A stretch of DNA of 64,000 nt from an uncultured candidatus Porisulfidus sp. Its GTDB lineage: Bacteria; Pseudomonadota; Gammaproteobacteria; Poriferisulfidales; Poriferisulfidaceae. The DNA lies in NCBI GenBank assembly GCA_965204575.1, contig OZ241993.1:480001-544000 (forward strand), written 5' to 3'. The notes beneath the pieces are model-generated. The model searched no databases and was not told the origin of the DNA. It saw only the letters and a program-made list of their open reading frames with translations. This document shows, one piece after another, positions 1 to 14,828 of this stretch (position 1 is the first letter of the stretch; every line of letters starts with the position of its first letter). The translations under genes and the position numbers were made by a program.

Positions 1-1
1 C

Positions 2-208
2 GACGCCTACCAGGACTACGAAGCAACGGAAATCCACGAGGCCGCGCTCAAGGAGCTCGGACAATCGCTCGACCTGGAGGTGGAGCCCCAGGTCGTGCAA
101 GTAGAGAACCAGACACGCACGCTTACCGGGTCGGTCGAAGACCAGTACCAGCAGTGGCACGAAATCCTGAACGAGATCTACCTGTCGGAACGTGGCGGCC
201 TGAATTGA
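2..208 (+). CDS. C-terminal fragment of a conserved hypothetical protein (first visible gene of the motor/vWA operon)
   Basis: Frame 2 is open from the window edge (DAYQDYEATEIHEAALKELGQSLDLEVEPQVVQVENQTRTLTGSVEDQYQQWHEILNEIYLSERGGLN*). Its TGA overlaps the next TTG start. Confidence 0.75.
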   Translation, partial: DAYQDYEATEIHEAALKELGQSLDLEVEPQVVQVENQTRTLTGSVEDQYQQWHEILNEIYLSERGGLN

Positions 209-933
209 TCCCAGTCGCACTGGCGCTGGCGGCGGGGCTAACCGCAGGAACCGCCGCGGCCGAGGGCATCCAGGATCGGGCACTTCGCGCCATGCTGGAT
301 TCGGATTGGACCCGGGCGGTCGAGTTGTGGGCAAAGGTGGACGGGCAGCGAGCCCGGGAATACCTTCAGCAGGCCCGGGCGGAACTTCAGTATCAGCGAA
401 CCCGGTCCCTGCTGGACGAGGCCCGTGCAGCCCGACAGAAAGAAGACTGGGCTGCGGCCGATGCCGCCTACCTCAAGGCACTGGCCATTTCGCCCCATTT
501 GAAGCCGGCGCACCAAGGCCGAGAGCAGGTCGCCCTGTACATCGAGGCATACCGGCGGCTGGACGCGTTGAAACTGCCGGAAGGCCTCTACGACAAGGTC
601 ATCCGAGCCCGGGCGAAAGAGTGGCTCGCCTTTGTCCGAGAGAAACGACTCGGTGACCGAAAGATCGACAAGGCTCGCACAGGGCTTGTGGAGGCATTGA
701 AGCTGGCGCAAATCCCGGTCTCCCTGGTCCTGACTTCGGACAACCAGTCCGAAATTGAAATTTACGGCGTCGGGAAACTCGGGCGGCTCGAACGCCAGAC
801 CCTGAAGTTGATCCCAGGTGACTACATCGTCGTCGCCAACCGGCCCGGATACCGAGATGTTCGCGCGACGCTGAAAGTGCGTCCCGGCAAGGCTCTTACC
901 CTGGACATCCGATGCACGGAGTCGATCCGGTGA
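205..933 (+). CDS. Exported TPR-like helical protein with C-terminal PEGA-like beta domain
   Basis: TTG start overlaps the upstream stop. Signal peptide (PVALALAAGLTAGTAAA), TPR-like helices (WAAADAAYLKALAISP), PEGA-like tail (LIPGDYIVVANRPGYRD). Confidence 0.7.
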   Translation: MIPVALALAAGLTAGTAAAEGIQDRALRAMLDSDWTRAVELWAKVDGQRAREYLQQARAELQYQRTRSLLDEARAARQKEDWAAADAAYLKALAISPHLKPAHQGREQVALYIEAYRRLDALKLPEGLYDKVIRARAKEWLAFVREKRLGDRKIDKARTGLVEALKLAQIPVSLVLTSDNQSEIEIYGVGKLGRLERQTLKLIPGDYIVVANRPGYRDVRATLKVRPGKALTLDIRCTESIR

Positions 934-2747
934 TTCTTGAGCACGAACCGGTCCAGGCCAAGCCATACCGGCCGCCCAAGCGGGAAAGGCGCCGCAAACG
1001 GCCTTCAGCACCCCGATTCCGTGGGGCGGGGCTTGCGGTCCTGCTGCTGGCGCTGATGACGGCAGGAGCCTGGTACGCCATGGGGCAGGCGCAACTCATC
1101 AGCTTCGAGACCGATCCCGCAACCGCCACGGTGCACCTCGAGAGCCCGCACATGATGGTGAACGGGCAAGCCTTGCTCTGGCGTGGCCGGCATATCGCGA
1201 ATGTGGAAGCAGAAGGCCACTATCCCCGGCAGATCGAATTCCAGGCGGGAGGAGACGCGCCGCGCACCGTGCAGGTCACTCTAGACCCCTTGCCGGGCAA
1301 ACTCCGGGTTTCCACGACCCCTGAAACCGAGGGGAAAGTCCGGGTGGACGGCGAACACGCCGGGAAGATCGGAGAAATACTGGAGGATCTCTCCCCGGGT
1401 CGGCATGTCGTGCAGGTCAGCGTGGAGGGCTTCAAAATGCACCGGCAAACGGTAGAGATCGAGGGATACGGCCAACTGACCGAGATCGAGATTTCGCTCC
1501 AAAAAATCGCGGAACCCGCCTTGCTGACGATTTCCAGTACGCCCGAGGCCGCGGATATATTGATCGACGGCACTTGGCGGGGACGGACCCCGAAGCGGAT
1601 CGTGTTGACTCCCGATACCCGGGTGGAGGTCGCCCTGCTATTTCCCGGGCATGCCCCGGACCGGCAAACCTTTAAGCTGGAGCCCGGCCGGCAAAGCCAC
1701 ACAGTCACCCTGACACCACGCCTTGGCACCCTTGAACTTTGGCCGACGCCAACTAACGCGACGGTCCGCGTCGATGGACAGGTAGAGCTCCGGCGCCAAC
1801 TGCAGTTGGCACAGCGGGCCCATACCGTGGAGGTTTCCGCGCCGGGCTATGTAACAAAGAAATACACCGTGGTGCCCCACCCGGATACCCCGAAGCAACT
1901 TTTCGCCGTCTTGCAATCACAGGCGGAGGTCGAATACTCCCGGCGCCAGAAGCATGAACGGGGTCGCGGGCTGGTCTTCGTCGAGTTCCGGCCCCGCGAA
2001 TCGTTCGAGATCGCCACGACGCGCCGCCGCATCCCGGTGCGCCTAACCCGATCGTTCGCGATCATGGACAAGGAGGTCACCAACGCCCTTTACCGGCGCT
2101 ACCGGGCCGGACATGACTCCGGAGAAGTGTTCGGCAAGCGCCTGGACCGCCCGAGCCAACCGGTGGTGCGGGTCAGCTGGGCGGATGCCGCATTGTTCGC
2201 GAACTGGATGAGCGAACAGGTAGGGGTTGCGCCATTCTACCGGGTGCGCGACGGACAAATCGTGGGATTCGATGCGCAGGCGACCGGATACCGGTTGCCG
2301 AGTGAAGCCGAATGGGTCTGGTTGACCCGTTCCGGAAAGCGGCATGCCTGGGGTGACTTCATGCCGCCCCCGGACCGGTTCGGCAATCTGGCGGACGCTT
2401 CCGCCTCCGACATCGTGCAGCCGACACTGGAAGGATACAACGACGGGTATGCCGTCAGCGCCGACGTCGGAAGCTTCCCGCCTTCGGGCAAGGGGTTGTA
2501 TGATTTGCCGGGCAACGTGGCGGAATGGATGCACGACGTGTTTCTCGACAAGCTGCGGGTTTCGGCCCGGCCGGAGACAGAGCGAGTCAATCCGCTGGGC
2601 GAAGCCAGCGGCCAGTACTACGTTATCCGGGGATTCGGATGGCGCGACGGCGGGCGCAAGGAGTTGAGCCTGAGCAACCGCCGCTACGACCGCGACCCCA
2701 AGGACGACGTGGGGTTCCGGCTGGCTTATTACCTGGAGAAGCCATGA
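930..2747 (+). CDS. Membrane-anchored multi-PEGA + FGE-sulfatase (SUMF1-like fold) protein
   Basis: GTGA overlap with the previous gene. N-terminal TM helix, repeated PEGA motifs (STPEAADILIDG, GRHVVQVSVEGF), FGE-fold motifs EVTNALY, PVVRVSWADA, YRLPSEAEW, GLYDLPGNVAEW, VGFRL. Confidence 0.85.
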   Translation: MILEHEPVQAKPYRPPKRERRRKRPSAPRFRGAGLAVLLLALMTAGAWYAMGQAQLISFETDPATATVHLESPHMMVNGQALLWRGRHIANVEAEGHYPRQIEFQAGGDAPRTVQVTLDPLPGKLRVSTTPETEGKVRVDGEHAGKIGEILEDLSPGRHVVQVSVEGFKMHRQTVEIEGYGQLTEIEISLQKIAEPALLTISSTPEAADILIDGTWRGRTPKRIVLTPDTRVEVALLFPGHAPDRQTFKLEPGRQSHTVTLTPRLGTLELWPTPTNATVRVDGQVELRRQLQLAQRAHTVEVSAPGYVTKKYTVVPHPDTPKQLFAVLQSQAEVEYSRRQKHERGRGLVFVEFRPRESFEIATTRRRIPVRLTRSFAIMDKEVTNALYRRYRAGHDSGEVFGKRLDRPSQPVVRVSWADAALFANWMSEQVGVAPFYRVRDGQIVGFDAQATGYRLPSEAEWVWLTRSGKRHAWGDFMPPPDRFGNLADASASDIVQPTLEGYNDGYAVSADVGSFPPSGKGLYDLPGNVAEWMHDVFLDKLRVSARPETERVNPLGEASGQYYVIRGFGWRDGGRKELSLSNRRYDRDPKDDVGFRLAYYLEKP

Positions 2748-2962
2748 AACGGCTTTGGTGGGTGTCCCTGTACGCGGCGGCGGCCCTGGCGTGGGCCGAA
2801 GAGCCTCCTGCACCGCAAGCGGAAGAAGAGGACCGCGAAGTCATCGAAGTCCTGACCGAGGAGGATCTCAAGCGGGAGGCCCCGCAGATCACGCTCAAGC
2901 AATTGACCCCGAAAGAAACCATTTCCCTCGACCAAGCCGTGGATATGCCCAGTGACATTTAA
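2744..2962 (+). CDS. Small exported acidic protein
   Basis: ATGA overlap, signal peptide MKRLWWVSLYAAAALAWA, acidic linker, C-terminal PKETISLDQAVDMPSDI. Confidence 0.7.
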   Translation: MKRLWWVSLYAAAALAWAEEPPAPQAEEEDREVIEVLTEEDLKREAPQITLKQLTPKETISLDQAVDMPSDI

Positions 2963-3833
2963 ACTGAACAACCTGACCGGGCGCTGGCGCGAACACGAAG
3001 TGTTCTGGCAATTGCTGGCGTTGGCGGTGTCGTTCGTGCTGGTGCACGCGGCGTATGAACTGGTGGTGCGCCCAGTCGCCTATGAGGAGTTGCAGCGCCA
3101 GGCCGTTGCCGAGGAACAGGCTGAAATCGCACCGCCGACGCTTGGCGCGCGGATCGCCGTAGTCGTCAAGGACTACGAGCAGGAGGCCTGTTTTGTCGCC
3201 CTGTTCTGGGCACTTGCCATCATGTGGATGAAGCTGATGAAGCTGCGCTTCGCGCGAAGGCTGCTGAGCCAGCGTGGCCGGCAAGACGAGGAGAGTTTCC
3301 TGGAAACCCGGGAAACCGATCTGGTCCTGCCTCAGGCGCATGACCGGGCACGCTTCACCGACGTTCGGGAGTACGTGCGAATGCAGGGCTATGGCAGTAC
3401 CGTGCTCTACCGGGCTGCCGACGCCTGTCTGGATCGCTTCTTCACGACGCATTCCGTATCGGACGCCACTGCGGCCATGAAGGCCAGTTGCGAGATGGAG
3501 TCGGACCGGCAGGACACCGAACTGGCACTGGTGCGTTACCTGACCTGGGCCATTCCTTCGCTTGGATTCATCGGCACGGTGCGCGGGATCGGCGCGGCCC
3601 TGGGGCAGGCCGAAGAAGCCACGCGCGGCAACATCGGGCCGGTGACGGAAAGCCTTGGCGTGGCATTCAATTCAACGTTTGTCGCCCTGCTGATCAGCCT
3701 GTTCATCATGCTGCTGCTGCACAAACTGCAGGAAGCCCAGGAGTCGCTGGTACTGGATGCCCAGGAGCATTGCCAGCATCACCTGCTGCGTTACCTGCGG
3801 GAGCGGACGCGGACGGATGAGCCTTCTTCTTAG
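2952..3833 (+). CDS. MotA/TolQ/ExbB proton-channel family protein
   Basis: Four hydrophobic segments. Signature WAIPSLGFIGTVRGI...LGVAFNSTFVAL. Confidence 0.9.
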   Translation: MTFKLNNLTGRWREHEVFWQLLALAVSFVLVHAAYELVVRPVAYEELQRQAVAEEQAEIAPPTLGARIAVVVKDYEQEACFVALFWALAIMWMKLMKLRFARRLLSQRGRQDEESFLETRETDLVLPQAHDRARFTDVREYVRMQGYGSTVLYRAADACLDRFFTTHSVSDATAAMKASCEMESDRQDTELALVRYLTWAIPSLGFIGTVRGIGAALGQAEEATRGNIGPVTESLGVAFNSTFVALLISLFIMLLLHKLQEAQESLVLDAQEHCQHHLLRYLRERTRTDEPSS

Positions 3834-4728
3834 AATCGACAGCTACGCGCTGGCACAGCCCGACGGCACCGACTGGCGGGTCGAGTGGTGCTTGGCCCGC
3901 CGGAATTCAAAAGACGGTTGGCGATTCGGCAAGGATGCAGGCGAACGGCTGCAGCCCCGACGCACCGACAAGGAAAACAACGAATACCTGGAAGCACCGG
4001 GGACGGGAGAAAGCCGAGGCACGTCGAATATCGACCTTGCGTATTTGCAGTTGCGGGAATTCCTGCCGGAAGGGGAAGGCCCGATCGACCTTTCGGTGAG
4101 CGGAGGCATTGATCAATTGCGGCTCGAATGCTTGCTGGGCGTGCTGGAGGCCTTGGGCTACACGCCCCGAAGTGTATTCCCGACCGCACTGCTGGCAGCC
4201 CGGGACCTTGAACCCGGCCGCCACGGCATCATCGAACTCGGGCGCAGCCGCAGCTGGGTCAGCACCATTGACGTCCAGCCGGACCGTGCGCGACTGGAAT
4301 CGGTCCAGGATTACGGAGACTTTGGCTTCTATCACCTCTTCACTCAATGGATGGAGAACGCGGCGGAGGCCTTCGCGGCCCAGCACCGCTTCGATATGCA
4401 TCGCAACCTCGCGGCAAACCGCGGGCAGCTGTTCGAACAAATGTGCCAAGGCTTCGCCGGGAAATCCGGACAGATCCGGCTCACTCTGGATTCCCGGCCC
4501 GTGACGCTGGACGAAAAGATCTTTCAGGCCCGCTGGCCGAAGTCTTCTCTCGATACGGAGGGGCTGGAGTTCCTGCTGCTGCCTCCCCTGACGCGGGTAT
4601 TGCCGCTGCCGGAACAGGGGTTGGGTCTCCCTCTCTGCGCCAATCCCACGCCCCAGGCCGTCTCCGACCTGGACGCCGCCGTGCCGGAAGACGGGCAAGC
4701 CCGCCGCTGCGTGGCTCTCTCCTGCTGA
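3817..4728 (+). CDS. Cytoplasmic hypothetical protein, possibly a degenerate actin-like (GspL/PilM/MreB-like) fold
   Basis: ATG at 3817 overlaps the motA-like gene. No signal peptide. The motif HGIIELGRSRSWVS resembles an actin-like phosphate-2 strand. The fold call is inference. Confidence 0.55.
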   Translation: MSLLLRIDSYALAQPDGTDWRVEWCLARRNSKDGWRFGKDAGERLQPRRTDKENNEYLEAPGTGESRGTSNIDLAYLQLREFLPEGEGPIDLSVSGGIDQLRLECLLGVLEALGYTPRSVFPTALLAARDLEPGRHGIIELGRSRSWVSTIDVQPDRARLESVQDYGDFGFYHLFTQWMENAAEAFAAQHRFDMHRNLAANRGQLFEQMCQGFAGKSGQIRLTLDSRPVTLDEKIFQARWPKSSLDTEGLEFLLLPPLTRVLPLPEQGLGLPLCANPTPQAVSDLDAAVPEDGQARRCVALSC

Positions 4729-5772
4729 ATGTCCAGACGCCGCCGCAGCCGTTTCCTGAACCCGTTCGGCCTGGCTTTCCTGGATGTCATGTCCTGCGGA
4801 CTGGGGGCCGCGGTCCTGCTGTTCCTGATCATCGACCACAACCTGACCGAGCTGGCGCAGGCATCGGAAAGCGGCGAGGGAGATATGCAACTGCTGGAGC
4901 AGTCGATCCAGGAACAGGAAGAACTGATCACCGAGCACCGCAGACAGATGCGTCAACTGCAGCGCGAGCTGGAAAGCCTGGCGCAGCAGCGCGTGTCCGC
5001 CATCACCACCCAGGCCGAACTTAGCGCCCGCCAGCCGAAGGCATCCGACACGGCCCGGCTGGAACGGGAACTGCGCGAGCGCAAGAAGAAGCTCCAGGAA
5101 GCGGAGAAAAGCAAGCAGCTGAGGGCAAAAGAAGGAGAAGGGCAACGCCAGTACGTGGCCGGCTTCCGGGTCGAGGGCCGCCGCATCTTGATCCTGCTGG
5201 ATCGCTCGGCCAGCATGCAGGACGAGCGAATCGCCACGATCATCCGAAACAAGTTTCTCCCGGTGAAATACCAGGTCGAGAGCTACAAGTGGCGCTGGGC
5301 GCGTTCCATCTTCGAGTGGGTCCTCTCACACCTGCCGCAAGAGGCGCAATACCAAGTCTGGGGGTTCAGCACGACGGCGAAGCCGGCACTGCCGGGGAGC
5401 GGATGGCTGCCGGCAAAAGACGAGAAACGGATGGAAGAGGTCATCTCGGCCGTGCAGGGCTGGGTTCCTTCGGGGGGGACCCGCCTCGATACGACTCTCA
5501 AGGAGATTGCCCAGATCAAGCCCAGACCGGATGCAGTCTATCTGATTACGGACGGCCTGCCGACACAGGGAAAATCCTGGTTCAAGAAAAATCGGGTCAG
5601 CCCTTCCCAGCGCATGGATTTTTTCCAAGAGGCAACGGGAGGCATTGCGGGCCCGCCTTTCAACATTGTCCTGCTTCCGCTTGAAGGCGACCCGGCAGCG
5701 GCCGGGGCCTACTGGGGATTTGCGATGAGGACGAACGGGCAATTCCTCGCCCCGGCGGAGGACTGGCCATGA
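4729..5772 (+). CDS. Single-TM, coiled-coil, vWA-domain protein (ExbD/TolR-like N-terminus)
   Basis: TM segment FGLAFLDVMSCGLGAAVLLFLII, heptad region, MIDAS LLDRSASM ... GGT ... ITDG. Confidence 0.85.
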   Translation: MSRRRRSRFLNPFGLAFLDVMSCGLGAAVLLFLIIDHNLTELAQASESGEGDMQLLEQSIQEQEELITEHRRQMRQLQRELESLAQQRVSAITTQAELSARQPKASDTARLERELRERKKKLQEAEKSKQLRAKEGEGQRQYVAGFRVEGRRILILLDRSASMQDERIATIIRNKFLPVKYQVESYKWRWARSIFEWVLSHLPQEAQYQVWGFSTTAKPALPGSGWLPAKDEKRMEEVISAVQGWVPSGGTRLDTTLKEIAQIKPRPDAVYLITDGLPTQGKSWFKKNRVSPSQRMDFFQEATGGIAGPPFNIVLLPLEGDPAAAGAYWGFAMRTNGQFLAPAEDWP

Positions 5773-6734
5773 GGCGCGTCCGCCGGCAAGCCGACAACCA
5801 TTTGTCGTTTCTCGACGTGGTCAGCTGCGGATTCGGGGCCATGGTGCTGTTGATCCTGATCACTAAAACCACTGTGGGTGAGCCGGTCGAAGACCTTCGG
5901 GCCCAAATCGAAGCACTGCAGGAACAACTCTCACGCATCATTCAGGTCCGGGCAAGCCTGGCAACCGAACAACTTGCGGTGCAAACCCGGGTGCACGCTC
6001 AGCAGGAGAAGCTGCAGGACGAGCGGAGGGCCGTAGAGGAAGCGCGGCAGGCGAACGCTGGCGCCCAGGCGCAGGCCCTGATCGAGGCAGACCTGAAGAC
6101 CGCGCTGCAACGCCTCAATGAAGAAATGCGGCGGCTGAACCTGACTGCATCCAAGCCGGATGTGATCGGGGGCATCCCGGCCGACAGCGAATACATCATC
6201 TTTATTGTCGACACGTCCGGCAGCATGAAACGGTTTGCCTGGGAGGCCGCCAGGCAGCAACTGGTGGCTCTGCTGGACGCCTATCCGAAAGTGCGCGGAC
6301 TCCAAGTGATGAACGACATGGGCACGTACATGTTCAGCGGCTACCGGGGGCGCTGGATTCCGGACACGCCCGCACGGCGGAAGGTCCTCCTGCAACGCTT
6401 TGACTCCTGGCATTCGTACAGCAATTCGAGCCCCGTCGAAGGCATTCTGGAAGCCATCAAGCGGTTCCGCATGAAGTCCGACAAAATCAGTCTGTACATC
6501 TTCGGCGACGAATATACCGGCGAGTCAATCCAGCGGGTGATCGACACGGTTGAAGATCTCAACTACCGGGATGGGGAGCGGCAGGTCCGCATTCATGCGG
6601 TCGGGTTCTTCACCCGCGCGCAGATTGAGAAGATTGATCCGAAATACGCCGACACCACCAGCCGGTTCGCGGCACTGATGCGGGAATTGACCCGGCGCAA
6701 CGGAGGGACTTTTCTAGGGGTTACGGTGGATTGA
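5769..6734 (+). CDS. Single-TM, coiled-coil, vWA-domain protein (paralogue of the previous gene)
   Basis: TM segment LSFLDVVSCGFGAMVLLILIT, coiled coil, MIDAS IVDTSGSM ... FGDE. ATGA overlap. Confidence 0.85.
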   Translation: MRRVRRQADNHLSFLDVVSCGFGAMVLLILITKTTVGEPVEDLRAQIEALQEQLSRIIQVRASLATEQLAVQTRVHAQQEKLQDERRAVEEARQANAGAQAQALIEADLKTALQRLNEEMRRLNLTASKPDVIGGIPADSEYIIFIVDTSGSMKRFAWEAARQQLVALLDAYPKVRGLQVMNDMGTYMFSGYRGRWIPDTPARRKVLLQRFDSWHSYSNSSPVEGILEAIKRFRMKSDKISLYIFGDEYTGESIQRVIDTVEDLNYRDGERQVRIHAVGFFTRAQIEKIDPKYADTTSRFAALMRELTRRNGGTFLGVTVD

Positions 6735-6747
6735 AACTTAAAGAGAA

Positions 6748-6767
6748 ACGCCTCCCGGAGGAGGCGT
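6748..6767. terminator. Hairpin between convergent vWA and ankyrin genes
   Basis: acgcctcc-cgga-ggaggcgt, 8-bp perfect stem. Confidence 0.55.
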
Positions 6768-6816
6768 CGGGCCAGCGATACTCTCACTGGCGGGGATCGA
6801 AATTGTACACCAAGAT

Positions 6817-7455
6817 TTAGCCTGGGTGGGTCAAGATTTCTGGATCCATATTTATTTTCGCCCCAGCATTAACCAGAAGTTGCTGGATTTGAAAGTTTGA
6901 ATTGTACCGAGCCGCAAGGTGCAACGGCCTGTTCCCATTTCTGTTTTCCGCATTGACGTCTGCGCCTGCGTCAATCAGAGCCTGCAATGCTTCTTTGTTT
7001 AAATTGTCCTCCGCCGCATAATGCAACGGCGTGCACCCGCCTCCACTTTTCGCATGAACATCTGCGCCCGCATCAATCAGGGCCTGCAGGACTTTCTTCG
7101 AATTGTGCGGCGCCGCAAAGTGCAACGGCGTGTACCCGCTCTCGGTTTTCGCACGAACATTCGCGCCCGTGTCAATCAGAGTCTGCAGGACTTTCTTCGA
7201 TTTGTTCCGCGCCGCATAGTGCAGCGGCGTGCGCCCGCCCTCGGTTTTCGCATGAACATCCGCACCCGCATCAATCAGAGTCTGCAGAACTTTCTTCGAA
7301 TTGTCCCCCGCCGCAAGGTGCAGCGGCGTGCGCCCGAACTTATCTTTCACATGAACATCCGCGTCCATGTCAATCAGGAACTGCACGACTTTATTCGATT
7401 CGTCAAAAGCCGCGTCAAGCAACAGCGTCGTGTCCCTACTCTCGTCCTTTGCCAT
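6817..7455 (-). CDS. Ankyrin-repeat protein (about 6 repeats)
   Basis: Repeated G-x-TPLH-x-AA...LIDAGADV units at 33-aa period. Confidence 0.95.
   Translation of the reverse strand: MAKDESRDTTLLLDAAFDESNKVVQFLIDMDADVHVKDKFGRTPLHLAAGDNSKKVLQTLIDAGADVHAKTEGGRTPLHYAARNKSKKVLQTLIDTGANVRAKTESGYTPLHFAAPHNSKKVLQALIDAGADVHAKSGGGCTPLHYAAEDNLNKEALQALIDAGADVNAENRNGNRPLHLAARYNSNFQIQQLLVNAGAKINMDPEILTHPG
6880..7400. repeat. 99-bp tandem repeats encoding the ankyrin units
   Basis: Recurrent tcaatcagag-ctgcag-actttcttcga and ttttcgcatgaacatc at about 99-bp spacing. Confidence 0.85.
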
Positions 7456-11079: not shown

Positions 11080-11906
11080 AGTTCCACGGAACCAGTATAG
11101 GCATACTCCGCACTGCCCCGCAACACCACCGGCTGATCCTCGCCTTCCCAGTGCACCTGGAGGTCTCCGCCGGGAAGCGACACCACGACATCCTCCTGAA
11201 GTTCTCCCGCCAGCCGGCCCGCAACCACTGCCGCACAAGCCCCGGTACCGCAGCCCGGAGTTTCGCCGACCCCGCGCTCCCAGACCCGCAGCCGGATATG
11301 CCGAGGCGTGGAGATTTCCATGAAACCCACATTGGCATGCCGGGGGAATCTCGGATGGGTCTCGATCCGGGGCCCCAGAATGTTCACCGGCGCACTGCCG
11401 ATCGCATCGACGGTCAGCACCGCGTGCGGATTGCCCATGGAAACTGCGGCAATTGAATATTCCTTTCCGCCCACCTCCAAGAGGTAAGTGGGGTGGCGGC
11501 CTCGATTCGAAAAGGGAATTTCGTCCGGTTCCAGCCTCGGAATGCCCATATTGACGCTCACCGAGCCGTCATCATGCAGTTGCAGAATGACTTCTCCCGA
11601 AGGTGCGCGTGCGCGCTGGTTCGAGGCATCTGCATACTTTCGATCGGCAGCATAACGGCCCAAACAGCGTGCGCCATTGCCGCATTGCTCCACTGACTGG
11701 CCGTCGGCATTGTAGATCCGGTAGGAAAAGTGGATGTCGGGGTCCGGATCCGAGTCCAGGAACAACACCTGATCACATCCGATCCCGACGCGTCGGTCCG
11801 CGAGTCTTCGCAATTGGGCCACCGTCAGGGAAACCTCACGGTCCCAGGCATCAAGGACAACGAAGTCGTTGCCCAGGCTGTGCATTTTGGTGAAGTCGAG
11901 TCGCAT
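11076..11906 (-). CDS. dapF: Diaminopimelate epimerase
   Basis: FTKMHSLGNDF, CGNGARC, SMGNPH, RVWERGVGET.GCGTGACA. Confidence 0.96.
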   Translation of the reverse strand: MRLDFTKMHSLGNDFVVLDAWDREVSLTVAQLRRLADRRVGIGCDQVLFLDSDPDPDIHFSYRIYNADGQSVEQCGNGARCLGRYAADRKYADASNQRARAPSGEVILQLHDDGSVSVNMGIPRLEPDEIPFSNRGRHPTYLLEVGGKEYSIAAVSMGNPHAVLTVDAIGSAPVNILGPRIETHPRFPRHANVGFMEISTPRHIRLRVWERGVGETPGCGTGACAAVVAGRLAGELQEDVVVSLPGGDLQVHWEGEDQPVVLRGSAEYAYTGSVEL

Positions 11907-12044
11907 CGGTGCATTTTACTTGCTTGAGCAAATTCTTATTTAAACTAGTAATTTCAGTAGGAAGCAAACCTGTAACTCTGGGAAATATCCCCATTTGGTA
12001 TGATGCGAGAGCCCGTCCAGAAATCTGCTGTCTGAAAGGAGAAG

Positions 12045-12965
12045 ATGGCCAGTCATCCCGCCCAACAAACATCGGCGGAAGCTTTCTCTAAAGCGCCTCT
12101 GCGACCGCATGTGCCCACTGAAAAACCTGGGATTCTCGACAATGCCGACATGGCATGTGAGGATAATCTGAAGTATATGCGGAGGTTCAAGGATGGCGTG
12201 ATGGGCCTAATTGTTACCTCTCCACCATACAACCTTGGAAAATCGTACGAACAACAATCCTCTTTAGATGCCTATCTAGAGCATCAAGACAGAGTGATCA
12301 GTGAATGTGTGCGTTTGCTCAATTCGTCTGGCTCCATCTGCTGGCAGGTCGGAAATTATGTAGAAAAGGGAGAAATTGTGCCCTTGGATAACGTCCTGTT
12401 CCCCCTATTCAAGAAACATGGCCTCAAACTGCGAAATCGGATCATATGGCATTTCGGGCATGGCCTGCATTGCTCACGGCGATTTTCTGGACGATACGAA
12501 ACAATTAACTGGTGGACAAAAAGCGACGATTACACCTTTCATCTTGATCCAGTTAGAGTACCGTCCAAATACCCGAACAAGAAATACTTCAAGGGTCCGA
12601 ATGTAGGAAAACTATCGGGAAACCCCAAAGGGAAAAATCCTAGTGACGTCTGGATATTTCCAAACGTCAAAAGCAATCATGTCGAGAAAACAATTCACCC
12701 ATGTCAATTCCCTGTAGAACTGGTAGAACGGCTGGTGCTTTCCATGACCGACCCCGGGGATGCGGTTTTTGACCCCTATATGGGAGTAGGTTCTTCTGTA
12801 ATAGCCGCTCTGATGCATCAGCGCATAGGCTACGGGTGTGACACCGAAAAGGAATATGTTGATGTCGCGTGGGAAAGAGTCCGCGCGCTACAGTCAGGAA
12901 AGCTACGCACACGGCCAATGGGAAAGCCCGTTTACGACCCAGCAAAACCGAATGGCGGCCATTAA
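12045..12965 (+). CDS. Site-specific N4-C/N6-A DNA methyltransferase, beta class
   Basis: Motif IV VTSPPYN precedes HPCQFP and motif I FDPYMGVGS. Visibly lower GC than the flanks. Confidence 0.92.
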   Translation: MASHPAQQTSAEAFSKAPLRPHVPTEKPGILDNADMACEDNLKYMRRFKDGVMGLIVTSPPYNLGKSYEQQSSLDAYLEHQDRVISECVRLLNSSGSICWQVGNYVEKGEIVPLDNVLFPLFKKHGLKLRNRIIWHFGHGLHCSRRFSGRYETINWWTKSDDYTFHLDPVRVPSKYPNKKYFKGPNVGKLSGNPKGKNPSDVWIFPNVKSNHVEKTIHPCQFPVELVERLVLSMTDPGDAVFDPYMGVGSSVIAALMHQRIGYGCDTEKEYVDVAWERVRALQSGKLRTRPMGKPVYDPAKPNGGH

Positions 12966-13577
12966 ATGCGCATCGCGGCCAAATACTCGCACATGAATGG
13001 CGAGGAATTTCTACTAGTCCACAAGCCAAAATTGTGGCAGGAGGTTCAAGATGTTATCGCATCAGTCGATGCGGAAGCATGTCGGACTAAAGTCTCGAAA
13101 GAAATAACAAAAAGAGGCAGACGACTTTATTCGCCAATCGATATGAACAAGGCCTTCAAAAATGGATTGGAAGGTTTTGGCTGGAAGTCTGAAAGACGGA
13201 ATTTCTGGGTGACGCAAAACGAACAGTTGCTCCGGGACACTCTGCACATGCTTCCTGATGAGCAAAAACAGGCAATCTTAGGTGCTGGCCATGAGCCTAT
13301 CTTGTCCTACAATCAGACAGATTTCGTGAAGGCGCGAATTGCGGTAGAGGTACAGTTCGGCAAATATGCTTTCGTGGCTCATGATCTGTTCGTAAAACAT
13401 TTAAGTTTTTTTGTTTCAGATGTTATCGACGTAGGCATTGAAATACTCCCCATGAAAGAACTTGAAACCCAAATGTCGTCAGGTGTTCCATATTTCGAGC
13501 GAGATTTACTGAATATCCTGAGACAGGGACGGGGAGTGCCTGCGGTTCCCTTAGTCCTTGTAGGTGTTGCTCCGTAA
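12966..13577 (+). CDS. Type II restriction endonuclease, BglII/BstYI family
   Basis: YSHMNGEEFL start, NQTDFVK.RIAVEVQFGKY catalytic motif (E-x-Q). Abuts the methyltransferase. Confidence 0.88.
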   Translation: MRIAAKYSHMNGEEFLLVHKPKLWQEVQDVIASVDAEACRTKVSKEITKRGRRLYSPIDMNKAFKNGLEGFGWKSERRNFWVTQNEQLLRDTLHMLPDEQKQAILGAGHEPILSYNQTDFVKARIAVEVQFGKYAFVAHDLFVKHLSFFVSDVIDVGIEILPMKELETQMSSGVPYFERDLLNILRQGRGVPAVPLVLVGVAP

Positions 13578-13612
13578 ATCTGAATGCTAAATAGCACGTG
13601 AAAGGCTAATAC

Positions 13613-14338
13613 TTAGCCAAATTTTTTAAACACATTCAGAAGCAGAATTTCTAAATGATGTGCTGCCGTGTTGGCACCAACCTTCAAAGAATTTGGATGG
13701 CCACAACTATTGCGGAGGTCAAGGCAACGCTTCAGTTCATTCTTTACATTTTTCCCAATAATGGAACATGCTGCGACCCGGTCTAAAAAATCTGCTTCCC
13801 TCAAGATGCCTAAATCATCCGTTGTCTTTGCATTTTTCCATTTGGGATTCACACGTTTCATCTCTTTATTGAATTCGTCCATGCATTTTTTGCACACATG
13901 GCTTTGCAAGACAGCCATAGCACCGACCCAAGACATAACAATTGCTGATCTATAGAGCTCAGCTTCATAGCATTTAATCGCTTCTTCCACAAAAGTATGT
14001 ATTTCATCATTTTTAATGTGCAAGAGTTCTGTTCGGAGATCCGTCGCCACTCGTATCGCCGCAGGACTGATTTTGGTGACACCAAGATTTCTTAAATGCT
14101 GCTTTCCTGAATCAGTTATTTCCCATCCATCCTCTACTCTAATCGCTAACCCTCGGCTACTGCCCAAAGAGGCCGACAGGTTCCAAGTTTTTGGTACCTG
14201 AAATCCGGCCTCCCTAGCGCAACTTCTTATTTCTTTCACTTGGCATGGTCTATCCCATGTCGCAAGAACTAGTAATAACTTGTCGCGTTGCGACAGTTCA
14301 CGCTGTAGCCAAACCTTTAAGTCACTCCTGCTTAGCAA
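13613..14338 (-). CDS. wHTH-like + HEPN-like domain protein
   Basis: TTG start at 14338 preceded by GGAGG. N-terminal wing GWEITDSGKQHL. C-terminal EEAIKCY...YRSAIVMSW and R-x4-H motif RNSCGH. Confidence 0.7.
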   Translation of the reverse strand: MLSRSDLKVWLQRELSQRDKLLLVLATWDRPCQVKEIRSCAREAGFQVPKTWNLSASLGSSRGLAIRVEDGWEITDSGKQHLRNLGVTKISPAAIRVATDLRTELLHIKNDEIHTFVEEAIKCYEAELYRSAIVMSWVGAMAVLQSHVCKKCMDEFNKEMKRVNPKWKNAKTTDDLGILREADFLDRVAACSIIGKNVKNELKRCLDLRNSCGHPNSLKVGANTAAHHLEILLLNVFKKFG

Positions 14339-14828
14339 GTTTCTCCTCCAATACCTTCCTTTCTTTAGGTGAAAGTGTGTACGTGTCCTTTCCAACAAGG
14401 CGCAAGCGATCAGCCTTCACCAATCTCTCAAGATACTGGGTAAGGTTGCTGTTGTAAGTCCTCTTGTAGAAGGGCGCGGCAGCTTTCATGGTAGATAAGA
14501 TCTCTTTCCGGCTCACGCTTTCCTTTCCTTCAATCAATACCAACCTCACCGACGCGGCGATTATCAAATCTGGGCCAGATTCCACCGCGAGGATTGTTGC
14601 AATGGTATTCGTAGAAAGGTCAGTTTCAATTGATGGTCTTGCTAAACCTCCGGGGGCCTCACTGGAAGCCTCTCGGCCAGTAGATAAAACATATCTATTC
14701 TCCGTATAGAAACCAATGGTTTTCTCTATGAGATTAAATATGTCCTCTTTAAGAAATGCCTCGTCCCCTTCGTAAGAGACCTCAAATCCGCCCATTTTTA
14801 TATGTATTTTTGCTATATCTCCGGCCAT
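14322..14828 (-). CDS. Hypothetical protein with probable C-terminal winged helix
   Basis: RBS GGAGG. SRKEILSTMK...NLTQYLERLVKADRL...TYTLS. Overlaps the HEPN-like gene. Confidence 0.75.
   Translation of the reverse strand: MAGDIAKIHIKMGGFEVSYEGDEAFLKEDIFNLIEKTIGFYTENRYVLSTGREASSEAPGGLARPSIETDLSTNTIATILAVESGPDLIIAASVRLVLIEGKESVSRKEILSTMKAAAPFYKRTYNSNLTQYLERLVKADRLRLVGKDTYTLSPKERKVLEEKLAKQE

Follow-up and report, generated by a model that had tools for sequence, protein, structure and literature searches.

The first 6,734 nucleotides of a 64,000-nucleotide stretch of DNA from an uncultured candidatus Porisulfidus sp. (the window, G000:C1:480001-544000) belong to a nine-gene operon, g1 to g9. 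We propose that its genes code for a machine that spans the envelope and has an ion-driven motor of the MotAB/ExbBD/TolQR (5:2) type at its centre. In this machine two transmembrane (TM) proteins with vWA domains, g8 and g9, would replace ExbD, TolR or MotB as partners of the channel protein g6. We put the probability of this reading at about 0.7. Speaking for this reading, the core of such a motor has been predicted in silico before and independently ('Origin and Evolution of Bacterial Periplasmic Force Transducers', Mol Biol Evol 2025;42(6):msaf138; PMC12204202). Because the core idea is already in print there, we file the operon as a reduced member of that predicted kind of motor. An earlier description of positions 1 to 6734, made from the sequence alone (the original prediction), had listed one A-type channel, two Asp-bearing single-TM vWA proteins, and partners of the PEGA-FGE, TPR-PEGA and actin-fold types (FGE, formylglycine-generating enzyme). 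Our analyses arrived at the same architecture. The host genome (G000) is a single contig of 1.82 Mb.

The channel g6 and the vWA proteins g8 and g9

Pfam analysis assigned g6 to MotA_ExbB (6e-12), and the protein has four hydrophobic segments. The window's g6 was aligned with 13 of 120 listed relatives (alignment A1). Two threonines, T209 (G-F-I-G-T-V-R-G-I) and T242 (A-F-N-S-T), were invariant in this alignment. They align to the G-T-V-W-G-I and I-A-T pore-lining positions of the solved TolQ 8odt_A (E 0.009). A search with g6 returned 5688 relatives at E ≤ 0.001 among 8000 scored. MotA_ExbB was found by Pfam in g6 only, and no ExbD, TolR or MotB domain, nor OmpA, was found in any open reading frame (ORF) of the operon. 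The original prediction of a single MotA/TolQ/ExbB gene without an ExbD/TolR/MotB gene was thus borne out by Pfam over the operon ORFs.

g8 and g9 are distant paralogs (22–24% identity), each with one TM helix and one vWA domain. Their N-termini are basic, the TM helix opens with F-L-D-V-x-S-C-G, and a heptad-rich stretch precedes the vWA domain. Pfam matched g8 to VWA_3 and VWA_2 narrowly above the cut-offs and g9 to VWA (2.4e-4) narrowly below the cut-off. Neither protein had an OmpA or MotB match in Pfam. Each window protein was aligned with relatives from 27 of the 77 loci having them, giving 28 rows per alignment (A4 for g8 and A5 for g9). The TM Asp, which is D19 in g8 (F-L-D-V-M-S-C-G) and D16 in g9 (F-L-D-V-V-S-C-G), was invariant in both alignments, and the F-L-D motif was at least 90% conserved over 75 g8 and 73 g9 sequences, as were the D-x-S-x-S and the downstream Asp of the vWA heads. 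The metal ion-dependent adhesion site (MIDAS) of g8 was full, with D158, S160, S162 and D275 invariant and T251 at least 90% conserved. In g9, which reads D148-T-S150-G-S152 at this site, D148, S150, S152 and D247 were invariant; the equivalent of the Thr was not identified in A5. Since the proton-relay Asp and Thr are invariant, they point to ion-coupled work.

Complex prediction was performed with g8 and g9. The interaction score ipSAE was 0.82, 0.77 and 0.83 (median 0.82), whereas the best control reached 0.00. Of 157 solved complexes, 116 reached the mark used, as did 2 of 215 mismatched pairs; because custom alignments were used, this calibration is only rough for the g8:g9 score. The runs shared at least 82% of contacts, and the partner predicted local distance difference test (pLDDT) was at least 76. 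In the complex model, the interface is a parallel, heptad-spaced coiled coil between residues 45-125 of g8 and 39-120 of g9. The two heads also touch each other through their C-terminal strands (g8 336-346 with g9 312-319). These predictions support the binding of g8 and g9 as a heterodimer. With about 80 residues, its coiled coil would reach about 12 nm in length.

A different arrangement would have the two vWA proteins work outside the ring as TolA/TonB-like force transducers, the axle being an ExbD or TolR supplied in trans from canonical loci. A side-binding vWA family is described in other phyla in the text of PMC12204202, and the host genome does hold three ExbD/TolR-family genes (C1:1209361, 1421562 and 1553099). 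However, these genes all lie more than 700 kb from the operon, and each of them is already paired with an adjacent MotA_ExbB gene of its own. According to the same text, the TM helix of the side-binding family bears an SHLS/His motif, and the genes of this family adjoin tolR-like genes. In contrast, no His was present inside the TM helix of g8 or g9 when the sequences were read, and their invariant Asp lies near the cytoplasmic end. We regard an axle supplied in trans as very unlikely.

Operon layout and conservation

On the + strand of window positions 1-6734, ORF calls gave the 3' end of one gene (208 bases) followed by seven complete co-oriented genes (Table 1). The full operon begins about 1.7 kb 5' of the window, and its upstream pair, g1 and g2, occupies positions 12269-14208 of the upstream DNA (L002). 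The g2/g3, g3/g4, g4/g5, g5/g6 and g6/g7 junctions overlap by 55, 22, 4, 11 and 17 nt, respectively, g7 and g8 abut (0 nt), and g8 and g9 overlap by 4 nt. GC content at the third codon position was 0.65-0.77 in all nine genes. This codon-position pattern, together with conservation in other genomes, indicated that g1 to g9 are genuine genes and not chance ORFs. The start codon of g3, GTG at 154, is uncertain.

The original prediction had claimed at least eight co-oriented overlapping genes, and eight were found when the cut g2 is counted, with one junction that abuts. It had also called the machine self-contained within positions 1-6734, which does not hold, as g1 and g2 precede the window. 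Recovery of the upstream genes, which it had proposed, yielded an acidic secreted protein (g1) and a lipoprotein (g2). Its gene list had missed the 72-aa secreted g5 between g4 and g6, and the start that it gave for the actin-like gene, 3757, was corrected to 3817 (g7).

Table 1 Features of the operon and its 3' side, in window positions
Feature	Position	Strand	Description
g2, 3' end	1..208	+	394-aa lipoprotein; complete gene G000:C1:479024-480208 = L002 13024-14208
g3	154..933	+	259 aa; N-terminal hydrophobic segment 18-36, helical TPR-like region, C-terminal PEGA-like beta domain
g4	912..2747	+	611 aa; short cytoplasmic tail, TM 39-57, PEGA/CarboxypepD_reg-type beta-sandwich repeats, C-terminal FGE-fold domain
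g5	2744..2962	+	72 aa; signal peptide, acidic linker, conserved C-terminal peptide
g6	2952..3833	+	293 aa; MotA/TolQ/ExbB-family channel (A subunit)
g7	3817..4728	+	303 aa; cytoplasmic Hsp70 nucleotide-binding-domain/actin-fold protein
g8	4729..5772	+	347 aa; B-type subunit 1, TM 17-35, coiled coil ~45-125, vWA head
g9	5769..6734	+	321 aa; B-type subunit 2, TM 14-32, coiled coil ~39-120, vWA head
GC-rich hairpin	6747..6768	not assigned	9 bp stem; 13 nt 3' of the g9 stop, before the convergent gene 6817-7455(-)

A locus survey was performed with the g6 alignment against one genome per species, and the best 80 of at least 600 matched stretches were analyzed. Among 600 matched stretches listed, 597 encode g6 relatives. 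The original prediction had proposed a neighbourhood survey for co-conservation of the genes, and co-conservation was confirmed: tblastn with the window proteins found the same gene order and strand throughout the 80 loci, all from other genomes. Homologs of g4, g8, g9, g2 and g3 were detected in 79, 77, 77, 68 and 67 of these loci, respectively. A slot-7 ORF was present in 72 of the 80, and six of the eight misses were contig ends. Across all genes, most misses were at contig ends.

The nearest titled relatives among public genomes (L003-L005) are metagenome-assembled, have g6 proteins of 92-98% identity and are labelled uncultured Chromatiales bacterium or uncultured candidatus Porisulfidus sp. 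The titled loci also include Microbulbifer, Halioxenophilus, Exilibacterium, Chromatocurvus and Kineobactrum. To follow the distribution of the vWA component, g9 homologs were counted at E ≤ 1e-15. Among 400 genomes drawn evenly from the class, 35 had one; these represent 29 of 320 genera and include G039, which is flagged unpublished. Across the phylum, 20 of 401 drawn genomes had a g9 homolog, 16 of the 20 being in one family of another class.

Most of the loci have extra conserved neighbours. An upstream TPR protein of about 420 aa was found in 44 loci, and two downstream lipoproteins of about 230 aa were present in 55 and 54 loci, respectively. A further neighbour, an M48 peptidase, occurred in 36 loci. 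With single representatives as tblastn queries, the flanking TPR protein and the two lipoproteins were not found in the host genome. The copy studied here is a reduced, natural minimal version, which lacks the FHA tail seen in relatives of g7 and, with the queries used, the flanking TPR and lipoprotein genes. In L009, a series of ORFs of 142, 148, 189, 148 and 142 aa lies downstream of the operon (11867-14700), and these ORFs look tandemly repeated.

The hairpin 3' of g9 was scored by consensus match as a terminator-like site on the - strand; the region contains five sites of this kind, whereas 7.5 would be expected in shuffled sequence. It is probably a terminator common to the operon and the convergent gene. 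A scan for sigma-70-like promoters found none upstream of g1 and one site within the operon, on the wrong strand. The sequencing runs on record (four entries from two studies) include none marked as RNA. Divergent genes lie on the 5' side of the operon. They comprise genes of the ubiquinone-biosynthesis type, with SCP2 and ABC1-kinase domains, and genes for a UvrD-type helicase and DNA polymerase I.

The host genome also contains a second non-canonical motor pair, located outside the window on the minus strand (G000:C1:1589558-1591383; L083 3558-5383). Its first gene encodes a 306-aa MotA_ExbB-like protein (Pfam, 24.9 bits). In the partner, P0241 (299 aa), a TM helix that bears an Asp (F-W-P-S-F-T-D-I-M-M-V-V-V-I-V-F-L) is combined with roughly 150 coiled-coil residues and a small domain at the C-terminus. 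Next come genes for an ABC ATPase and an ABC-2 permease, and the locus had no match to the ExbD family.

Possible envelope partners and the cytoplasmic protein g7

The small protein g5 was found by scanning the g4-g6 gap of every locus. A small ORF that ends at or over the g6 start with the pattern F-x-P-[ST]-E-E-I-S-E-D-x-x-V-x-F-P-x-D-I-COOH was present in 78 of 79 loci, and the 79th locus is cut by a contig end. Pro -4 and Asp -2 were required by the search pattern. Among the 78 sequences, Glu -15 occurred in 76, Ser -12 in 70, Asp -10 in 73 and Ile -1 in all 78. A stricter pattern was matched in 59 of the 79 loci, and tblastn alone detected g5 in 5 of 80. The copy in the window ends with L-T-P-K-E-T-I-S-L-D-Q-A-V-D-M-P-S-D-I-COOH. 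Because g5 lies in one operon with the genes of two MIDAS heads, its acidic C-terminal peptide is a candidate ligand of the vWA heads.

Pfam analysis of g4 gave FGE-sulfatase (3.1e-29) and PEGA (1e-18). PEGA domains are listed among peptidoglycan-associating domains in the text of PMC7159879. The closest solved relatives of the FGE domain were PorK chains, 9myj_B (6e-13) and 9mzu_A (7.9e-13). True FGEs carry an active-site Cys pair near the C-terminus. The tail of g4 contains no Cys, and 74 of 76 full-length orthologs have none in their last 90 residues. A catalytic formylglycine-generating enzyme was rejected for g4, as the C-terminal Cys pair is absent.

The likeness to PorK raises the question whether the operon is a Proteobacterial counterpart of the type IX secretion core, in which a GldLM/PorLM motor drives a PorK/N ring and exports or moves surface proteins. 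PorK/GldK is the closest relative of the g4 FGE domain among both solved chains and NCBIfam models, and the long periplasmic shaft and the ring-lipoprotein-like N-domain of g2 recall PorLMKN. However, g4 scored 65.6 bits against the NCBIfam GldK/PorK model, whose cut-off is 350, and it is TM-anchored and not a lipoprotein. The operon has no translocon candidate. Models of GldM, GldN and SprA gave no match in the host genome, and the same searches were also silent in all 14 control genomes. An analogue of this secretion core seems improbable to us, and we give it little weight.

g3 had a PEGA match under the cut-off (E 0.0096) and no TPR match in Pfam. Among 23 aligned members, its relatives matched TPR_2 in 19, Pkinase in 2 and PEGA in 2. 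The window's g3 is a short version of a TM-TPR-PEGA protein of about 510 aa in other taxa, with the C-terminal block conserved (alignment A3). In two loci, a Ser/Thr kinase domain is fused N-terminally to the g3 homolog (L057 2623-4980 and L079 1925-4354, Woeseiaceae-titled; best E 8.7e-32).

g2 has the lipobox F-A-G-G-C and no Pfam match. Its N-terminal alpha/beta domain is followed by a long helical hairpin and then by a small domain at the C-terminus. Its model had a pLDDT of 77.3 and a predicted TM-score (pTM) of 0.73; the hairpin turn is rich in Gly and Ala, hydrophobic and of low confidence. Residues 44-185 resemble FlgT (Z 10.6), PelC (Z 10.1, root-mean-square deviation 2.3 over 108), the TolB N-domain (Z 10.0) and CsgG (Z 9.3), and the Foldseek matches had E values from 9e-5 to 5e-3. 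As these proteins share a common small fold, we take g2 only as outer-membrane-lipoprotein-like.

g1 (L002 12269-13048) is an acidic, low-complexity secreted protein. Only a helix at its C-terminus is conserved, which in this copy reads D-D-I-V-T-R-Q-V-C-E-L-A-E-R-E-E-D-P-E-V. Homologs of g1 precede the lipoprotein gene in 62 loci. In at least one of them (L026), a Cys ends a signal-peptide-like segment in lipoprotein style, whereas the signal peptide of g1 here has no Cys.

The cytoplasmic protein g7 had no Pfam match. Its structure was modeled with 22 relatives (pLDDT 85.0, pTM 0.84). The best Foldseek matches of the model were the nucleotide-binding domains of DnaK, mortalin and Hsc70 (E 9e-11 to 1e-8, TMq 0.56-0.67, probability 1.00), and MreB scored lower (TMq ~0.48-0.51). 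The actin-like protein of the original prediction was thus recognized at the fold level, with Hsp70/DnaK as the closest relative. Hsp70/actin (ASKHA) proteins carry the phosphate motifs D-x-G-T-T and D-x-G-G-G-T. The first strand of g7 reads R-I-D-S-Y-A-L (family consensus L-x-I-N-D-x-x-L), and no Gly-rich loops were seen at the sequence level. Because these phosphate loops are not evident, g7 may be a degenerate, non-enzymatic scaffold.

The g7 family is large. With a threshold of E ≤ 0.001 a profile search found 2320 cluster representatives, of which 1217 reached E ≤ 1e-30. Relatives of about 430 aa have an FHA-like C-terminal domain; the window copy and its clade are without that tail. Pfam detected FHA (9.3e-14) in 1 of 23 aligned members, and the family profile weakly matches solved FHA and Hsp70 chains. 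We considered whether joint loss of a kinase/FHA pair lies behind the short g3 and the FHA-less g7 and rejected it, since A3 shows that the long g3 differs by extra TPRs and not by a kinase. Among the locus titles, that of L053 is Cryomorphaceae and that of L066 Rhodothermales, the others being gammaproteobacterial; the two outlying titles may reflect a binning error or transfer.

The FHA and kinase domains bear on whether the complex is mainly an envelope signalling device rather than a mechanical motor. Its FGE, PEGA and TPR ectodomains would sense a periplasmic ligand or damage, the MotA-like protein would be a gated ion channel, and the signal would reach the cytoplasm through the Hsp70-fold/FHA protein, with or without a Ser/Thr kinase. 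FGE-fold domains occur in bacterial Ser/Thr kinases, and a solved FGE-fold relative of g4, 5nxl_A, was deposited as 'Non-specific serine/threonine protein kinase'. Of the 23 g3 relatives aligned, 2 have the kinase fused, a genuine FHA domain is present in one slot-7 relative, and the large g7 family is always cytoplasmic. The kinase-g3 fusion and the one full FHA slot-7 protein suggest that a phospho-signalling layer may have been added in that lineage. However, the copy here and its clade have no kinase or FHA and yet keep the motor, both vWA proteins, g3, g4 and g5. The invariant residues of the proton relay also speak for ion-coupled work, though signalling and mechanics are compatible. A signalling device is, in our judgment, rather unlikely.

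Proposed mechanism and comparison with known systems

From the observed gene content, motifs, synteny and folds, we infer the 5:2 stoichiometry, a rotating shaft, the proteins on which the heads act and what the machine does in the cell. g6 would form a ring-shaped channel in the membrane. The Asp-bearing N-terminal helices of the g8:g9 heterodimer would sit inside this ring, presumably as two helices to five g6 subunits. The parallel coiled coil of about 80 residues would hold the two vWA heads, each with its MIDAS, out in the periplasm. Protons passing through the ring may then turn or pull the coiled-coil shaft, and the heads would act on periplasmic or outer-membrane partners, which may be g4, g3, g2 and possibly the acidic peptide of g5. 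g4 and g3, putatively anchored in the inner membrane and bearing PEGA domains, would hold the partners of the heads in place together with the lipoprotein g2. g7 could be a scaffold or regulator on the cytoplasmic side, with an FHA-like domain in most other lineages and a kinase fused to g3 in a few.

Several points weigh against this motor. The match of g6 to the solved TolQ is weak, and its score with the NCBIfam TolQ model (TIGR02796), 24.7 bits, is far below the equivalog cut-off of 221. The vWA match of g9 stayed under the Pfam cut-off. The 5:2 assembly of g6 with g8 and g9 is drawn from shared features and a published AlphaFold 3 (AF3) model, so it is presented here by analogy. In our complex model the TM helices of g8 and g9 were not placed together at low error, and the interface starts at g8 45 and g9 39. 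This is expected if the g6 ring is needed for placement; it gives no evidence for insertion either. The partners named for the vWA heads are guesses, and the operon encodes no outer-membrane beta-barrel or other obvious output device. Loci L052 and L053 have no gene in the g7 slot, and the first vWA gene directly follows the MotA-like gene, indicating that g7 is not obligatory beside the motor. Finally, the three flanking accessory genes not found here suggest, as far as sequence searches go, that the periphery of the machine is variable.

A more specific version of the motor can be drawn. As in PorLM-PorKN, the MIDAS heads of a rotating shaft might grip the acidic C-terminus of g5 or g1 and drive a PorK-like/PEGA scaffold and a ring of the lipoprotein with a PelC/FlgT/TolB-N fold. 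Such a machine would link the proton-motive force to a process at the outer membrane (transport, export of lipoproteins or polymers, or tethering) important enough to survive reduction to 1.8 Mb. In this detail the proposal is speculative, and we think it unlikely. Our best guess for the role of the machine is maintenance of, or transport at, the outer membrane or envelope, and not motility or defence. That a genome of 1.8 Mb has kept a trimmed version weakly suggests envelope housekeeping rather than an accessory role.

The original prediction had listed secretion, surface motility, uptake and phage sensing as possible uses. As to phage sensing, Zorya contains a MotA/MotB-like 5:2 complex, a type of motor also proposed for the present operon. 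A Zorya-like anti-phage system would use such a MotAB-type complex to sense perturbation of the envelope. However, PADLOC gave no match to ZorA-D; its only matches were two weak ones to the coiled coil of g9 (E 0.0025 and 0.0054), and the defence-system reading was rejected on this result. The operon has no nuclease or helicase effector genes. Its gene order is fixed over many genera, its ubiquinone, DNA polymerase I and helicase neighbours are unlike a defence island, and it has been kept in a 1.8-Mb genome. An anti-phage role is hardly credible. A MoxR-vWA/Bat aerotolerance operon was also rejected, as no operon ORF had an AAA, MoxR or DUF58 match.

Ion motors of the 5:2 kind power flagella, TonB uptake, Tol-Pal, gliding, type IX secretion and Zorya defence. 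A further, widespread motor class whose shaft ends in paired adhesion-type domains would be a new route for membrane energy to the outer envelope. The culturable hosts among the titled loci make the system directly testable.

The operon was compared with known systems. Like ZorAB, it has a non-canonical MotAB-type pair with accessory genes, but no PADLOC match to any Zor protein and no effector genes were found here. The Myxococcus Agl-Glt gliding machinery with the vWA adhesin CglB (PMC9946355) is similar in that a TolQR-type motor is functionally linked to a vWA protein. CglB is an outer-membrane lipoprotein outside the motor, and AglQ/S are TolR-like proteins of the ordinary kind. The operon showed no Glt homolog, though no search aimed at Glt was made. 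The flagellar stators MotAB and PomAB share the four-segment A subunit and the Asp at the cytoplasmic end of the B helix. In contrast to them, g8 and g9 have no OmpA-type peptidoglycan-binding domain, and no flagellar genes are nearby.

GldLM/PorLM with PorK/PorN is alike in having an ion motor with a far-reaching B-type subunit and a non-catalytic FGE-fold partner. It differs in that g4 is TM-anchored with PEGA repeats and the A subunit is of the MotA_ExbB type and not of the GldL type. With ExbBD-TonB and TolQRA-Pal the operon shares the MotA_ExbB superfamily, an Asp-bearing single-TM partner, pore threonines and a periplasm-spanning output. However, g6 is not a TolQ or ExbB ortholog and has four hydrophobic segments instead of three. 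The B partner would be a heterodimer with a coiled coil and vWA heads in place of the ExbD/TolR periplasmic domain, and no TonB/TolA-type third protein is present in this copy.

The closest known system is the predicted motor of PMC12204202. According to its text, genes for TM-tethered vWA proteins co-occur tightly with tolQ homologs without tolR or exbD. The vWA proteins form mostly heterologous pairs and have a "transpore-helix" (TPH) with a TolR/ExbD-like conserved Asp, and a 5:2 AF3 model places the Asp pair inside a ring of threonines. These TPH-vWA motors are reported mainly from Proteobacteria, and also from Verrucomicrobia, and their function is given as unknown. The operon agrees with them in a tolQ-like gene without tolR, exbD or motB, in two heterologous TM-tethered vWA genes, in a conserved TM Asp without the SHLS/His motif and in conserved pore threonines; membership is set by these shared features and not by sequence comparison with the paper's Idiomarina reference cluster. 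The original prediction had stated that no function was assigned to such an operon. This stands as far as experiments go, but the motor core had already been described and modelled with AF3 in that article.

The operon also goes beyond the printed prediction. The PEGA-FGE, TPR-PEGA, lipoprotein, Hsp70-fold/FHA and small secreted partners are not in the main text of PMC12204202, in which 'FGE' and 'PEGA' have 0 occurrences and the only match to 'FHA' is 'FhaC' (figures and supplements lie outside this check). Full-text literature searches for the accessory gene set returned nothing relevant beyond the same article. What is added to TPH-vWA motors is a fixed accessory set, a near-universal g5 with an acidic C-terminal peptide, a g8:g9 heterodimer supported by complex prediction, a minimal form of the operon that occurs naturally in a reduced genome, and fold assignments for g7 and g2.

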